Assembly (NCBI GenBank): GCA_963849325.1
Contig: CAWKHF010000004.1
Coordinates: 256,001 to 320,000, forward strand
DNA from: an uncultured Planctomycetota bacterium
GTDB lineage: Bacteria; Planctomycetota; Planctomycetia; Gemmatales; Gemmataceae
Direction: 5' to 3'
Length of the DNA: 64,000 bases
The notes below the pieces were generated by a model. That model did no database searches. It had not been told where the DNA came from and was given only the letters and a program-made list of their open reading frames with translations. Numbering within the stretch: the stretch's first letter is position 1; every line of letters begins with the position of its first letter. Position numbers and translations under genes: made by a program. Positions 56,220-63,319 of this stretch are shown here, one piece after another.

Positions 56220-58639
56220 GGCCCGTGTTGATTCTATCGACTCGCCGTCCCGGCTCACGCGGCACCGGCGGCTTAGGCTTTTCCTCATCGGGAATCCAGG
56301 CGGACTCCGCGACGATCTCCACCATCAGCTTACGGACATTGTAGCGATTGTCGGATACGAAGGACCGCCGCAGGTCCGACGAGCTTCGTGCAGGTCCGTA
56401 GGCACGGATCGGCTGCTTGACCAGGTAGTGGAACAGCTGCTCGACAAAGGCGTCGTGCGTCTCCTCGCTGTCGGCCAGGAACGCGGCCAGATCGCGGACG
56501 CCGGTGAACTTCCTCATCTTCGCCGCTGCGCGTCTGGTAGATGCCCGTGGCGTCGATGGGCCGCTCTTTTTCCTGGTCGCGGTAGCGGCCGATGGCGTCG
56601 AAGTGCTCCAGCGTGAAGCCGAGCGGGTTAATCATGCCGTGGCACGTCTGACACGCCTGCGGCCGCGTTTGCAAGCTCGACGCGCTCGCGCGTGGTCAGC
56701 CGTGGGTGCAGGTCCGGCGGCAACGGGGTGAAGGCCTCCGGCGGCGGCTGGAGCGTCCGGCCCAGGACGCTGCGCGACAGGAAGACGCCGCGATGGATCG
56801 GCGAACTGGTCGCCGTGTAGGCGAAGGTCGCCATCAGGTAGGGGTGCGTAAGCACGCCGGCACGCTCGCCGGCTTTCGCCGCGACCTTTCTGGAACGGCG
56901 CATCGGGCGGCAGATCGCCGCCGTAGAATCTGGCCAGCCGGCCGTTGAGATACAGGGAATCCGCGAGCAGCAGTTGGCGGAAGTCCGATGCCTCGCTCCA
57001 GAGCACGTCCTCCAGGAACAACTCCAGCGAGGTGCGCAGGTCCGAGGCGACCGCCTGAGTCGAAGCCGGGGATAGCTGTGCGGAGTCCTTGGACAGGTCG
57101 GGGACCTGATCGACCTTGCAGCCACTGCAGGAAGAACTCGCGGAGCTTGGCCCGGGTCCGCAGGTCGGCGACCATGCGCTCGGCCTGGTGCAGCCACCTG
57201 CTCGCGGGTGGCACAGCTCGGCCGCTCGCCGCCGCTTGCAGAAGCTCGGCGATCGGGCAGCGAATCCCACAGTCCGAAGGAGAGTCCGCGACGCCACGTC
57301 GTAAGCGTCTGGCCCGCCGCCAATCTCGCGGTAGAGGAAACGCGGCGACTTGAGGACGAGCAGCACAACGCGCTTGACGGCCGTTTCCAGATCGCGGGCG
57401 GCTTCGAATCTGGTGATCGACGTAGAGGCGCTTCTGCTCGTCGCGTGAGCGGCCGGCGAAACGCCCGTCTCGGCGAAGCGTACGACAGAACTCGCGGAGA
57501 CGCGCCTTGCGATCCGGCGGCATCGTCCGCGCACGCCGGCCAACTCCGCCAGGCGGGCGACGACGTAGTCCGCAACCTCGATGGCCGCATCGGTCGTGGC
57601 CTGTTCCCACGCCTTGGAGATCGACGTGCCGCGCTCGTAGCCGACGCTGCGGTCGTCCGGCGGAAACGGCGTGGCGACGACGAACGCAACGGGAGAGGCA
57701 GTTCGGCGTCAGGTTTCGCTGCGGGATCACCTCCGCCGTCCGCTGCGGCGGCTTCCACGCCAGCGCGATCGACGCCTTGACTTGCGGGCGGCTTGCCCTT
57801 CTTGTTCTTCGAGTCGTCCACGCCCTGCTTGGCCTTGGAGAACTCCAGCCGCAGCGGATAGACGCGCCCGCCCAGCAGGAAGATCGAGGCGCGATACTCG
57901 GTATCGTTGCCCGACTTCACCCAGGCGTCGATCAGCGGCCGTTTGCGTGTCGTTGACCCACAGCCGGGCGGCGTGCTCGGTGCGGACGATGAATTCGTAA
58001 CTCGCCGGTGTCCGGGGCCAGGACCGAGCCCGTCCAGCGGATCGAGAATTGATTGGCGTCGAACTTCTTGGGGTCCGGGCCGGACGTCGCCGAAGTCGAA
58101 GCGGACCTCGGGATCGACGCGCTCCAGGACGCGGTCGTTGCCGCGGAAGCGCCGGGACTTGAAATACTCGCCGCGCAGGCCGCGTTGCTGGTCCCAGTGG
58201 CTGGGCGTGCGGAAGCTGCCGATCAGGTCGGCGACGGCGTTGCCGATACTGGCGGACGGTGAGGCGCGACAGCTCGATGCGCGGCGGCTTGTTGCGGGCC
58301 TGCGCGGTCTTGGAGTAGAAGGCATCGTAGATGTAGGCGGCGACTTTCTGGGCGTCTTCGCCGCTGCATTTGTCGTCGGTGTCCTTGGGCATGGTCCGGG
58401 CGATGAGGCGGGTGAGCTGGGAAACGGAGCGATCCCCGGCCAGCGGACGCGGGTAATCATCAATCGGTGCCTTCTCCCGACGCTCCATGACACGAGGCGC
58501 ATTGCTGCTTGTAAATCTGTTCTCCGCTACGACCTTCCGCGGCGAGGACGCGGGGGGCCAGCATGCTCAGAGAGCACAGCAGGGCCATCCAGGGTAGGTG
58601 GCGGAGAGGGGACACGGTTGGCGGATTCGTGTGGATCAT
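56220..58639 (-). CDS. Cytochrome c-PA14-DUF1592/DUF1588 multidomain protein; heavily frameshifted, 3' end approximate
   Basis: Manual translation from 58639: MIHTN...GEQIYKQQCASCHG; PA14-like GLRGEYF; SPRFLYR; SSPIHRGVF; CQTCHGMINPLGF.LEHFDAIGR. Confidence 0.75.
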
Positions 58640-58997
58640 GGAGACCGATTCGGGTAGGCCGCTACGAAATCAGGAGGTCGGAAGGCAGGTCAACACTCAC
58701 CGAGGCGCGTCGTCCGCGAACTGGAGGGAAAAATGTCCGGGATGCGGCGCCGAGTGCTGATAAATAGTTTGAAGGCTCGGGGGACGAATGTCAAGGGGAG
58801 AGACGGAAAAGGTCCATTCCTCCCATCCCGTTGTTGCATCGACTGTCTGTTGCCGAAGAGAGACGAAGTTGGTAGGTGCCGCCAGCCGAGCGGCACGGCG
58901 GAACGATACAGCTATCCGTAACCGGCTCACGCGGAGCATGGCGTCGAAGCACGATACACCATCATTCACGTGGTCGGTCTGCTTGTATGTTCCATTT

Positions 58998-59160
58998 CAC
59001 TCCCGATTTCTTGTCGGGAGTATCCTCGACAGGGGAGTCGCGAGGAGGTCTTTCGGTCTGCTGAGGTACGACCTCTTGCTGCAGATTGACCCCTCCGCGT
59101 CGGACCCAGCGCTGGTTACATCTTGAGGCACTGACCTCTGATCACAAGCTTCCGCTCACG
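58998..59160 (+). ncRNA. IS110 bridge RNA (5' hairpin, target-binding loop, donor-binding loop)
   Basis: LTG TCGGTCTGCT 59053-59062, RTG GCTGCAG 59078-59084, LDG GTTACATCT 59115-59123, RDG ACAAG 59144-59148. All match the element flanks or ends. Confidence 0.8.
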
Positions 59161-59233
59161 CCGAGCTACGCCGGAGGAGCCTCGCGGCTACGGCCCCATC
59201 GTCTCCCTCTTCACTCCACATTCCGAGGTTCCC

Positions 59234-61042
59234 ATGCTACCACAACACGCTCCCGCTCCGCAATCGCCGCGACGCATCGGCGTCGGCATCGACACCTCCC
59301 GCTACGGCCATTACGCCGTCTTCCTCACGCGACGACCTCCAGCCCGCCGCCGACGAACTCTCCTTCCCCGAGTCCGCCGCCGGCTACGCCCTCTTCCGCC
59401 AACGCCTCGCAAGCGCATCGTCCAGCGCTACGGCGCCGTGCACTTCGTCGTCCGTCTCGACGTGGCCGGACCCGTATGCCGACAACCTGCTCCACTTCCT
59501 GCACCAACTCGGCCACGCCGCCAGCCGACGCCCGCCAACGCCGCCCGCCGTTGGCCCTCACCCTCTCCTGCGGCGATCCGCAACGCAACAAGAACTACCG
59601 CGCCGCCCTCTTCGGCAGCCAGAAGTCCGATCCCGTCGAGGCCCGCGCCGCCGCACGCTTCGCCCTCACCGAGCGAGCCACGCAGTGACAAGCCATTGTC
59701 CCTGCGAACTCCGCATCCTCCGCCAGGTCGCCGGCCGACTCCAGGCCGTCGTCCGCCAACGCACCCGCCTCCTCAACCAGTTCCATCATCTGCTGGCCTT
59801 GACCTTCCCCGAACTGGCCCTGCTCACCAAGGACCTCGCCGCCGGCTGGGTCCTCGAACTGGTCCACCGCTACCCACCGCCGCCGCGCCTGGCCCAGGCC
59901 ACGACCCGGCCGACCTGGCCGCCATCCCCTATCTGCCCGATGACCATGGCGACGCCGCTGCTCGCAACACGCCCAGCACCTCCATCGCCTCGCTGGACGG
60001 CGCGGCCGTCGAGGAGCTGGTGCGCGACCAGGTCCGCCAACTCCGCGACAGTCGGCGCGCGGCAAAAACGCCTGGAATACCTGCTGGTTTCCGCCTATCA
60101 CGCCCTGCCCCAGACCAACCACCTCGACACCATCCCCGGCATCGGCGCCGTCACGGCCGCCGTGCTGACCGCCTTCATCGTCGACATCGATCGCTTCGCC
60201 ACGCCGGGCAAGCTGGTCGCTTATTTCGGCGTCCTGCCCATCGAGGCGTCCAGCGGCGTGGACCGCGACGGCCAGGCCGCGTTCGCCGCGGCGTTGGGTC
60301 ATGAGCCGGCGCGGCAACGACCTGGTGCGTCGCTATCTGTGGATGGCGGCCTTGAGCGCCATCCGCTTCAACCCGGCGGTGCGGGCGTTGTACGCCCGTG
60401 TCGTGGCCAAGCATCCCCAGCACAAGGCGGTCGCCGTCGGCCACGCCATGCGCAAGCTGTTGCACCTGGTCTTCGCCATCTGCAAGAGCGGCCGGCCGTT
60501 CGACCCCGACCACTATCCCTGGCAGACGCCGGCTCACGTCGACGGAGAGTGACAATGACATGTCAGTGGATGCACCGAAGCCAGTGACAAGACCGTGTCA
60601 GTCGAAAGCCAGGCCGCGGGCCACAAGCCGGAAGCTGAGCCGGCTGCGGACAGTGGTCACCGCGGCCTGTGCCGACAGCGTAGCCGAGACGGCCGCGGTC
60701 GGCGAGAGCAACGCCGTCGATTTCGCCCACGTCAAGAGGCAACTGCCGCTGGCCCAGGTGCTCGATCAACTGGGTCTGTCGGCGCGCCTGCGCGGCAGCG
60801 GTCCGCAGCGCCGCGGTGCCTGTCCGCTGCATCGCGGCGATGGCCGCGGCCGGACGTTCAGCGTCAACCTGGAGGCCAACGTCTTCCAGTGCTTCGACAA
60901 GACGTGCGGTCAGAAGGGCGACGTGATCGACCTGTGGGCGGCGTTGCATGGCTTGTCGCTGCGGGAGGCGGCGTTGGACCTGGTGCGGACGTTTGGGCTG
61001 GAGCCTGCGCCACGCACCGGAACAGAGAAGAGGAACGGTTAA
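59234..61042 (+). CDS. IS110 recombinase (RuvC-like + Tnp20) with probable C-terminal CHC2 zinc-finger extension; multiple frameshifts
   Basis: IGVGIDTS, KSDPVEA, LDTIPGIGAVTAA, YFGVLPIEASSG, RRGNDLVRRYLW, AMRKLLH; then CPLH...CFDKTCGQKGDVIDL. Confidence 0.85.
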
Positions 61043-61204
61043 GGAACGGTTGACCGCGTCGGTGGAGAGAATCCGCCCTTGGGTCGGGGCCGTCCGCATG
61101 TGCGCAGACAGGACAGAGGAAACCGTTCTTACCGGCCGTCATCACGGGGACGGGGCTTGACATTCATCGTTACATCTGCAGCGGATTGTTCGGCGCTACC
61201 CCCT

Positions 61205-61684: not shown

Positions 61685-61860
61685 CTCTGCTTCGCTCCGC
61701 CTCGCCGAACAGTGATTAGTCTGAGGCGGGGCGTCTCGCGGCCTCATTCGTGGTGGTCCCTCGTGGACCCCGTTCGGAAGTTTGCCCTTCCTCACGCCAC
61801 GTTGCGCCTCCGCCGGCCTCCCACGGTTGTCCCACGAACTCCTCTATTCTGAAGGCTCCC

Positions 61861-63319
61861 ATGTCCCGGCACAAGCACCAAACCGCCTCGTCCGCCCCCA
61901 GGCAACCCGCCACGCCCGTGGCACCGCAACGCCGCCGTCACACGCCCACTCCCGCCGACGACGGCTACCACGAATCCCTGCCCATTCAGCACGGCCACGC
62001 GGCCGGCATCGACGTGGGCTCACGCACGCACGGGGTCGCTGCCCCCGCAGCAGACGGCACCCTGGACGTGGCCTGCTTCGACACCTACACCGAGGGACTA
62101 CGCGCCCTGGCCGCCTGGCTCCATGCCCACGCGGTCACCACCGTGGCCCTGGAGGCCACCGGCATTTACGGCGATCCCCTCTTCGATCTGCTCCCAAGCC
62201 AGGGCTTTGACGTCATCCATGTCAACCCCGCCTACACCGCCCAACTCCAGGGACGGCCCAAGACCGACAAGCTCGACTGCCAGTGGATCCAACGCCTGCA
62301 CGCCCACGGCCTGCTGCCCGCCTCCTTTCGGCCCGCCGCCGATGTCGCCGTACTCCGCGTCTACCTCCGTCAGCGGGCCGAACTCGTCCGCGCCGGTGCC
62401 CGACACATCCAGCACATGCAGAAGGCGTTGGAGTTAATGAACGTCAAGCTGACCGAGGTGGTCAGCGACGTGACGAGCTGGACCGGCCTGAAGATCATCC
62501 AGGCCATCCTGGACGGTCAACGCGACCCGCTGACGCTGGCGCGACTGCGGAACAAGCACTGCAAGAACAGCATCGATACCTTCGCGCGTGCCCTGCAGGG
62601 CAGTTGGCGTGACGAACACGTGCTGACGTTGCGGCAGGCGTTAGCATCGTGGCAGCACTATCAGGCTCAGCAACGGGAGTTGGAGGAAGCGATCGCCCGC
62701 CACCTCCATCGGATGAAAAAGACGACCGCGCTGCCGCCGCTGCTGCCCAAGCCGCGACGGCGGAGCCGCGCGGCCAACGAACCACGCTTCGACGTGCGAA
62801 CCGCCCTGTACTACGTGACCGGCGTGGACTTGACCGAGTTGGACGGGATCGCCGACGTGACGGCCTTGGTGGTCGTCAGCGAGATCGGCCTGGACATGAG
62901 CCGTTTCCCCTCCGCGAAGCACTTCTGCGCCTGGTTGGGGTTGTGCCCGCGGGTGAAGAAATCCGGAGGTCGGGTCTTGTCGAGTCGGACGCGCAAGGGC
63001 AAGGGCGCCGCGGCGCGGGCCTTGTGTCTGGCGGCGCGGTCGTTGTGGCGCAGTCCAACGGCGTTGGGTGCTTTGCTGCGGCGGTGGAAGGCCCGCTTGG
63101 GGGCGCCTGCGGCGATAACCGCGGTAGCGCACCGAGCTGGCTCGGCTGCTGTATCAAACCTTGAAGACGGGGGCGTTGCCGGCCCGCGAGACGGCGGCGG
63201 CGTATGCGGCCCGCCAGCGGGAGCAAGCGGTGGCAACGTTGCGGAAGAAGGCGTTGCGTCTGGGTCTGCGCGTGGTAGCGACGAGTGAAATCGTGGAGAG
63301 CGTAGCGTCGCCGCCATGA
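61861..63319 (+). CDS. IS110-family transposase (second clade), frameshift near 63133
   Basis: AAGIDVG, ALEATGIY, KTDKLDCQWIQRLH, LDGIADVTA, WLGLCPRVKKSGGR; continues ...LARLLYQTLKTG...SPP*. Confidence 0.9.

Follow-up and report, generated by a model that had tools for sequence, protein, structure and literature searches.

A 64,000-nucleotide stretch of planctomycete DNA (the window, which is C4:256001-320000 of an 8.16-Mb host genome in 14 contigs) contains an insertion sequence of the IS110 group whose recombinase gene is broken in its reading frame and ends in a peptide resembling the zinc finger of DNA primases. Whether this finger is a genuine part of an RNA-guided recombinase or a fragment left beside a decaying gene, and what a primase-type finger might contribute to such an enzyme, is the question that the locus raises. 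Comparison with a second copy in the same genome and with relatives elsewhere establishes, at the level of sequence, that the natural recombinase is a single protein of ∼596 aa, in which a RuvC-like DEDD domain, a coiled coil, a transposase (Tnp) domain with an SG serine, a linker and a CHC2 zinc-binding domain (ZBD) follow one another.

Translation of positions 60560-61042 on the plus strand gives a 160-aa peptide that contains the arrangement CPLH-x17-CFDKTC and has the C-terminal end TEKRNG. It matches the Pfam family PF01807 (Zn_ribbon_DnaG, the 'CHC2 zinc finger') at 36.3 bits (E 5e-9; gathering score 24.9 bits), with the ligand codons at 60821-23 (C), 60830-32 (H), 60890-92 (C) and 60905-07 (C), which bears out an earlier note on this DNA in placing a DnaG-like zf-CHC2 domain after the Tnp20 domain and a linker. 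Directly upstream, two halves of the IS110 Transposase_20 domain lie in two frames, one of which is closed in the window copy by a TGA at 60550-60552. The same note had seen no convincing separate start for the finger; an in-frame ATG does exist at 60560, ahead of the peptide, so that from the window copy alone a separate start is possible, and it is the homologs, in which the finger is fused, that settle the question.

Fusion of the finger across the family

The window's own genome carries a second copy (L002 1558-3384, minus strand, contig C7; 89% DNA identity) in which the gene is a single open frame of 608 aa. Its product scores 46.4 bits with PF01548 (cut-off 29), 70.7 bits with PF02371 and 36.5 bits with PF01807. 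All three families are likewise annotated in 117 of the best 120 relatives listed from a search of 5.8 billion proteins (71-100% identity, ∼596 aa), so that the proposed fusion, and with it the architecture DEDD_Tnp_IS110 + Transposase_20 + zf-CHC2 that the note had suggested looking for in protein databases, is confirmed. The other three lack the PF01807 label, and in these the region is still present with its ligands or motif mutated. In public databases, the family's proteins carry the name 'transposase' only.

Members outside this set have the same organization. A pattern scan of species genomes returned 12 loci, from Gemmataceae, Gemmatales, Tepidisphaerales, Pirellulales, Planctomycetaceae and one 'Alcaligenaceae' bin, while a metagenome scan found 200 relatives, and among the 80 that were kept 76 loci extend to query residue 606 or beyond, with two of the remaining four cut by contig ends. 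Full-length members, which are 63-83% identical to the paralog, keep C536, H539 and C559 in 69/69 cases and C564 in 68/69, and the fusion is retained in relatives at only 41-50% identity. Seven of 120 other genomes of the order contain a match at E≤1e-25, each including the finger part, and no finger-less relative was found among these 120 genomes at the same threshold. None of 300 other genomes in a phylum-wide sample matched at E≤1e-60, a figure to be read with the knowledge that repeats are often unassembled in such genomes. Since the paralog, the relatives, the metagenome loci and the distant members are all fused, the fusion is, as far as these comparisons reach, the natural state of a deep clade. 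Conservation of the architecture under purifying selection is evident in this large, mostly soil-metagenome clade of Planctomycetota.

Structure and relatives of the zinc-binding domain

A family profile built from 76 members divides into two parts with separate structural relatives. Its core matches the recombinases of IS621 (8wt6, E 1.7e-27) and ISCro4 (9t56), whose chains end at about positions 422-427; the 328-aa IS621 chain aligns only up to position 422, in agreement with the earlier statement that this recombinase has no finger. Positions 489-584 match the DnaG primases of Aquifex (2au3, 1.3e-6) and Bacillus (1d0q, 1.9e-6) with all four ligands aligned. The predicted full-length structure (mean predicted local distance difference test score, pLDDT, 79.9) has the same division, with confident modules at residues 20-438 and 499-600 separated by a linker, residues 439-498, with a pLDDT below 50 in the paralog model. 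In fold it is closest to IS621, ISCro4 and Nop5-type proteins, and 1d0q appears at rank 49 on the C-terminal part. Within the linker, A468, G469, P476, V481, T482 and A483 are conserved in at least 90% of members; its motifs AAGHK and VVTAA lie at paralog residues 460-490 (window ∼60600-60690). A conserved C-terminal tail, at paralog residues 601-608 (window ∼61019-61039), reads TEKRNG here and REEEPV in distant relatives.

Modeled alone, the finger domain reaches a pLDDT of 86.3, and, as the note had proposed to examine by modeling, it fits the DnaG zinc-binding domains. VIA-align places it on 2au3 with Z 13.2 (94 aligned residues, rmsd 2.8) and on 1d0q with Z 11.8, with lesser matches to T4 primase (Z 6.7) and Twinkle (Z 6.3) and none other above Z 4, and Foldseek at E≤1e-3 returns only 2au3 and 1d0q (E 2.9e-6 and 1.1e-5). 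The remainder of a primase is missing: neither a Toprim nor a DNAG_N domain was matched in the 608-aa protein, and the DnaG model TIGR01391 is matched at its positions 8-98 only, with 33 bits against a cut-off of 283.6. By its predicted fold, the finger is a primase-type zinc-binding domain without the primase, and the protein is not a primase. Complex prediction of the recombinase core (20-438) with the ZBD (495-608), chains that leave out the conserved linker motifs, gave a score of 0.12 (mark 0.32).

When 1.84 billion representative proteins were searched with the 129-aa domain, 2727 matched at E≤1e-3, 502 of them at E≤1e-10. From 150 listed proteins, the 63 of about 200 aa or longer were scanned for domains: 24 have IS110 domains, two a fragment of rve_3 (the DDE integrase core) and two are true Toprim primases, and the remainder consists of one chimera, two proteins without a family and 32 with the finger only. 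Nine of these 32 were inspected, and six are plainly C-terminal pieces of IS110 fusions. The two rve_3 proteins, P0192 and P0213, both from metagenomes, carry a ZBD of the same clade with a similar tail, fused to the C-terminus of the DDE transposase fragment.

State of the window copy

Alignment of the window element with the paralog reveals 18 indel events, of which 17 are extra bases in the window (fourteen +1, three +2) and one is a missing base; all but one, in the right end (61100), lie in the gene, where 16 insertions thus stand against a single deletion. The frame breaks that had been noted near 60545, 60590 and 60650 are real indels relative to the paralog, located at 60543 (+1), 60573 (+2) and 60647 (+1), and a further 13 lie upstream at 59329-60275; their supposed origin in sequencing error is consistent with the evidence given here, though unproven. 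Read in register, the window gene contains no internal stop and is identical to the paralog at 520/591 residues. For this pair, the ratio of nonsynonymous to synonymous change (dN/dS) comes to 0.23 over the gene as a whole, with values of 0.08 for the Tnp part and 0.24 for the finger.

The surroundings have a similar character. On the minus strand at 56628-58639 lies a planctomycete gene of the PSCyt/PSD type, whose cytochrome c, PA14, PSD5, PSD4 and PSCyt3 domains fall into at least three different frames, with PSD4 itself split at about profile position 65. The phase of GC content at third codon positions (GC3) switches 4-6 times per 2 kb in the region of 54-62 kb and 0-3 times elsewhere, except in one bin, and the stretch from ∼56 to 61.4 kb looks indel-rich as a whole. 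Because of the excess of insertions, the absence of in-register stops, the low dN/dS, the frameshifted neighboring gene and the GC3 switches, local consensus error is favored: the 17 gene-breaking indels are probably errors in a locally poor stretch of assembly, and otherwise the marks of a copy that decayed very recently.

The alternative, that the copy in the window is truly dead and the finger here a remnant or a separate short open reading frame starting at the ATG at 60560, concerns this copy only and is considered rather unlikely, though it is the strongest of the competing explanations. It draws on two points that count against an assembly artifact: the inserted bases lie mostly outside homopolymers and are therefore not of the commonest kind of long-read error, and an IS110-family gene 700 bp downstream is intact, so that poor quality does not extend over the whole assembly. 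With a divergence of 11%, the window copy and the paralog are also old, and the loss of the left end of the paralog, together with solo end fragments elsewhere, means that members of the family do decay in this genome. Decaying genes usually incline toward deletions, and the ratio of 16 insertions to one deletion is the opposite of that bias. Neither the lack of in-register stops nor the dN/dS values, lowest in the Tnp part, would be expected of a dead gene; an adjacent, unrelated gene is likewise multiply frameshifted, and both ends of the element, as well as its bridge RNA, are complete and canonical.

The intact downstream gene is a second, different member of the family (61750-63288, plus strand; 512 aa), which has PF01548 and PF02371 and no finger, an N-terminal extension of ∼80 aa and an odd Gly/Ala-rich C-terminus. 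The paralog used as reference (L002, G000:C7:282142-286974) has an incompleteness of its own that also tells against the preferred explanation: left end, bridge RNA and native start are all missing from it, its homology beginning 15 nt inside the gene, and for this reason it is probably not autonomous. By what each retains, the window copy thus combines the RNA with a broken gene, whereas the paralog's gene is open but comes without the RNA. Directly upstream of the paralog lies another IS110-family gene (369+ aa). Further traces in the genome are a 38-aa finger remnant, 58% identical, beside a purH-like gene (L003, G000:C10:497287-497400), a left-end fragment that stands alone at C10:225701-225789 and two right-end fragments of the same solitary kind, at C6:48302-48375 and C12:1471970. 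A search for the underlying reads among 20 candidate public sequencing runs found none with half or more of the sampled words, the best share, 0.11, being in soil metagenomes.

Element limits and bridge RNA

In alignments of 59 left and 59 right ends with their flanks, conservation runs from TTGTATG (58983) to TTACAT-CT-GCAGCG (61183). The host genome's unoccupied sites have the sequence ..GGTCTG-CT-GCAGCG.. and occupied ones ..GGTCTG-CT-[element]-CT-GCAGCG.., which makes CT the core and 58984-61175 (2192 bp) the element proper. An initial right end at 61183 was dropped in favor of 61175 plus the core, since the last six bases, GCAGCG, vary across loci with the right target guide (RTG) and so belong to the target. 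The coordinates of all features are collected in Table 1.

Table 1. Features of the insertion sequence, its recombinase gene and its target site, in window coordinates.
Feature	Position	Strand	Evidence
Left part of target: R''-like ..GGAACGA.., 5' arm, variable loop, 3' arm ending GGTCTG	58897..58981	+	∼17 unoccupied copies
Left core dinucleotide CT	58982..58983	+	Occupied versus unoccupied sites
Left end, 250 nt, non-coding	58984..59233	+	Onset of conservation in 59 loci
Bridge RNA with two internal loops	59037..59188	+	Consensus fold of 53 left ends; guide-flank covariation
Target-loop guides	LTG 59055-59063; RTG 59076-59084	+	
Donor-loop guides	LDG 59114-59125; RDG 59141-59149	+	
Recombinase gene: RuvC-like DEDD, coiled coil, Tnp/Ser domain, linker, CHC2 finger	59234..61042	+	16 insertions and 1 deletion versus paralog
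Linker, ∼60 aa, predicted disordered; three frame breaks; motifs AAGHK, VVTAA	60545..60715	+	pLDDT; conservation
DnaG-type CHC2 zinc-binding domain	60728..61003	+	PF01807; invariant ligands; fold match to 2au3/1d0q
Right end, 133 nt; conserved hairpins; TTGACA box 61157-61162	61043..61175	+	Alignment of 59 right ends
Right core CT (61176-77), right target GCAGCG (61178-83), R'-like GTTCGGC (61188-94)	61176..61194	+	

The non-coding left end encodes a bridge RNA. Its consensus fold, derived from 53 left ends, has 40 base pairs, 17 of them with compensatory changes, and is closed by a stem in which 59037-45 pairs with 59180-88. The paired cells of this fold are compatible in 96.1% of cases, against 35-52% when the partner is slid, and none of 500 shuffles matched it on any of five measures. 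Both internal loops share one design, a guide, a GAGG..CCTC hairpin and a second guide. In loop 1, the 5' guide (GGTCTG-CT-G) repeats the left flank and the 3' guide is complementary to the right one, and the guides of loop 2 match the joined ends of the element in the same way. Guides and flanks change together across loci (e.g., L069, L060, L083, L095, L033, and L079): the left target guide (LTG) is identical to the left flank at 302/385 positions against a shuffle mean of 273, and the RTG agrees with the right flank at 236/294 positions against 216 in shuffles, values reached in 0/10,000 permutations in either case. Rfam gave no family at E≤1 in either genomic copy.

Two sequence details of the ends may be added. 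If the ends were joined (61157-61177 to 58984-58992), they would form a putative promoter of the sigma-70 type, with TTGACA, a spacer of 17 nt and TATGTT, which would point into the bridge RNA and the recombinase gene. The DNA at the recombinase stop codon contains a direct repeat of GGAACGGTT.

The features of the IS110 group are present: a long structured left end with two guide loops, a short core and no long terminal inverted repeats. In the protein, D32, D87, D143, S348 and G349 are invariant and E146 is conserved in at least 90% of members; the acidic residues align with the DEDD positions of IS621, and S348 and G349 with its ESG motif. The score with the IS110 equivalog model of NCBIfam (NF033542), 123.7 bits, falls below the cut-off of 140, so that the protein represents a divergent lineage of the IS110 family and is not a typical member of that model. 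The guide covariation and the paired sites show, within the limits of sequence comparison, that 58984-61175 is a 2.19-kb IS110-group insertion sequence with a bridge RNA and the core CT, lodged in the 3' arm of a palindrome of the integron attC type.

The target site is of the integron attC type

About 17 unoccupied copies of the target in the host genome align as an imperfect palindrome of ∼120 nt with outer ends ..CGAAC.. and ..GTTCGG.., a variable loop, and inner arms that differ by sequence class yet remain complementary. Sites of the attC type are imperfect palindromes of ∼60-140 nt, and their consensus has an inverse core ending in ..AAC and a core beginning GTT.. at its two ends. Of 121 genomes from the order, 84 contain a 25-nt motif of this type with up to two mismatches (75/105 in the same family, 8/15 in the sister family), and a reversed control pattern has almost no occurrences. 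In several relatives the motif forms arrays on one strand with a spacing of 0.2-10 kb (G332 C168, G388 C23, G309 1.343-1.375 Mb, and G406 1.150-1.196 Mb), and in the last two an integron integrase (TIGR02249, 427 and 426.5 bits; cut-off 265 bits) lies within ∼3 kb of the array. The same-strand arrays and adjoining integrases in relatives identify the repeat as an attC-type site; its initial description as a repetitive extragenic palindrome (REP)-like repeat was replaced once these had been found. Genomes of the order hold up to ∼50 copies of the motif on one strand, and G309:C1:1.343-1.378 Mb and G406:C4:1.150-1.200 Mb look like large chromosomal integron-type cassette arrays with their integrase.

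The host genome itself contains no integron integrase above the TIGR02249 cut-off (best 85 bits), and its attC-type copies are scattered. The site in the window is solitary and is split by the element into 58897-58983 and 61176-61194.

Another IS110-family element of this genome, of 349 aa, finger-less and with a short left end, is present at G000:C7:540300-542100 (L102) and G000:C12:879938. Its junction, ..CCTGG followed by ATACTCATG.., also occurs beside several metagenome copies (L005/L097, L044, L085, and L098). This ATACTCATG had been considered as the end of a group II intron, an assignment that was rejected as it belongs to the 349-aa element.

Possible functions of the zinc-binding domain

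It is proposed that the ZBD serves as an accessory nucleic-acid module on a flexible, disordered tether, where it would read single-stranded or folded DNA. It might capture the attC hairpin or the lagging-strand template, or hold the strands displaced by guide-target pairing, and would in this way add a protein-encoded layer to RNA-guided target choice. That the domain binds nucleic acid of some kind is quite likely; that it reads single-stranded or folded DNA in order to capture the target or hold displaced strands is a narrower and distinctly more tentative suggestion, which falls somewhat short of an even chance. The putative involvement of single-stranded DNA or an attC hairpin gains context from the position of the element in an attC-type site, and attC sites act as folded single strands. 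The fusions of the ZBD to rve-type proteins, which are without a bridge RNA, suggest that its role does not depend on such an RNA. A more general view, in which the ZBD is a portable second specificity layer for transposases that reads single-stranded or folded DNA, couples bridge-RNA recombination to an unwound target and is passed between DEDD and DDE types, is rather unlikely.

The explanation as a whole, a fused IS110 element whose frame is broken by assembly error and whose ZBD acts as an accessory reader, is moderately favored, and observations on the target weigh against it. The 349-aa element has two copies inserted at the R' box of attC-type sites of this kind, so that attC targeting is accomplished without a ZBD in this very genome, and attC-targeting elements of the IS1111 type are described, in the available text, among transposases of ordinary size (PMC11187229). 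Conversely, the guides and flanks of a fused relative of the same genus with 48% identity (L100, G396:C374:1-2917) point to another target, a small GC-rich hairpin of the form ..CGCCC-CT-TGCGGGG.., and the apparent difference implies that the ZBD has no fixed link with attC.

Other roles for the domain fare less well. It might bind the bridge RNA or the guide-DNA hybrid and thereby stabilize the synaptic complex or the ribonucleoprotein. Hybrids of primer and template are held by the zinc-binding domains of phage primases, and the long core (∼440 aa against 328 in IS621) and long bridge RNA make additional contacts plausible. The occurrence of the same ZBD clade and tail on rve-type DDE fragments, which use no bridge RNA, speaks against this role, as does a bridge RNA that is of the canonical two-loop form with one 5' hairpin as its only extra conserved element, and the idea is judged improbable.

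Slightly less probable again is an adaptor that mimics the host primase ZBD, docks on the primase polymerase domain or the helicase-primase and recruits the recombinase to replication forks. The ZBD of DnaG can work in trans on a second primase molecule, the disordered tether and conserved C-terminal tail resemble a recruitment module, and the presence of the ZBD on two unrelated types of transposase would fit a link to a host factor; its identity to the genome's own primase-like ZBD match (C12:1345143-1345412) is, however, only 31%. That the finger is a functionless evolutionary relic is very improbable in view of ligands that are invariant at 63-83% identity and in relatives at 41-50%, of the dN/dS of its own part, and of the decayed or miscalled appearance of the few copies with mutated ligands.

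Significance

Bridge recombinases are under development as programmable genome-writing tools, and the bridge systems in the literature searched are two-part, with a recombinase of ∼330 aa and an RNA. The lineage described here naturally keeps a strongly conserved extra domain, putatively one that reads nucleic acid, on a flexible tether. Engineered zinc-finger insertions make Cre-type recombinases depend on a second site, according to the available text of PMC13604230; if the ZBD sharpens or gates target choice, it would be a natural counterpart of these constructs and could be transplanted. The finding that at least two IS110-family lineages colonize chromosomal integron attC sites of planctomycetes also bears on the disruption and rearrangement of cassette arrays.

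Comparison with known systems

The closest characterized systems are IS621 and ISCro4 (8wt6, 9t56), with which the window clade shares the RuvC-like DEDD domain, the coiled coil and the Tnp domain with its SG serine, as well as a left-end bridge RNA with target and donor loops of the form guide-hairpin-guide and a CT core; the layout of the element is that described for IS621 in the available text of PMC11208160. The recombinases of IS621 (328 aa) and ISCro4 (341 aa) both stop at about the point where the linker begins in the window clade, which in comparison with IS621 has a linker of ∼60 aa, a DnaG-type ZBD of ∼100 aa and a core longer by ∼110 aa. With the ZBDs of DnaG (2au3, 1d0q), the finger has in common the CHC2 ligands and the fold, at 26-29% identity. 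In DnaG this domain is at the N-terminus of a primase, whereas in the window clade it forms the C-terminus of a recombinase that has no Toprim or RNA-polymerase domain, and it differs by two-residue insertions in both zinc knuckles and by an Arg-rich loop after CPxH.

Targeting of attC by the IS110 family has precedents. The available text of PMC11187229 describes the IS1111-attC group (ISKpn4, ISPst6) as elements with IS110-family DEDD recombinases that occupy a fixed place in attC, potentially as a folded structure. As far as the same text and that of PMC11208160 go, these elements have the guide RNA downstream of the gene, with a long right end, and a zinc finger is not mentioned; the window element has a left end of 250 nt and a right end of 133 nt, and the hosts of its clade are Planctomycetota. 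Because its guides (59055-59149) are upstream of the gene, it is not a member of the IS1111-attC group.

No description of a zinc finger that occurs naturally on a bridge recombinase or another IS110 protein was found in the literature searched, which comprised main texts only, and supplements could list such proteins. In the available main texts of 10.1101/2024.06.21.599552, PMC11208160, 10.64898/2026.08.14.744561, PMC11187229 and PMC13604230, the word 'zinc' is absent or refers to engineered nucleases only, and a Kuenenia paper combining 'transposase' with 'CHC2' was discarded as a precedent, since CHC2 there stands, in the text available, in a methylation motif.

The use of DNA structure by an IS110-family element has a parallel in ISPpu10, for which the available text reports a repeated intergenic palindrome as the target and a stem-loop as the second determinant of specificity (10.64898/2026.03.19.712850). 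In that case, simulations led to the proposal that arginines of the ordinary recombinase read the structure, whereas the window clade would devote an extra domain to this task. The IS621-like mechanism of the IS110 group is thus known already, and what appears to be new in the window clade is the addition of a zinc-binding domain to a bridge recombinase.

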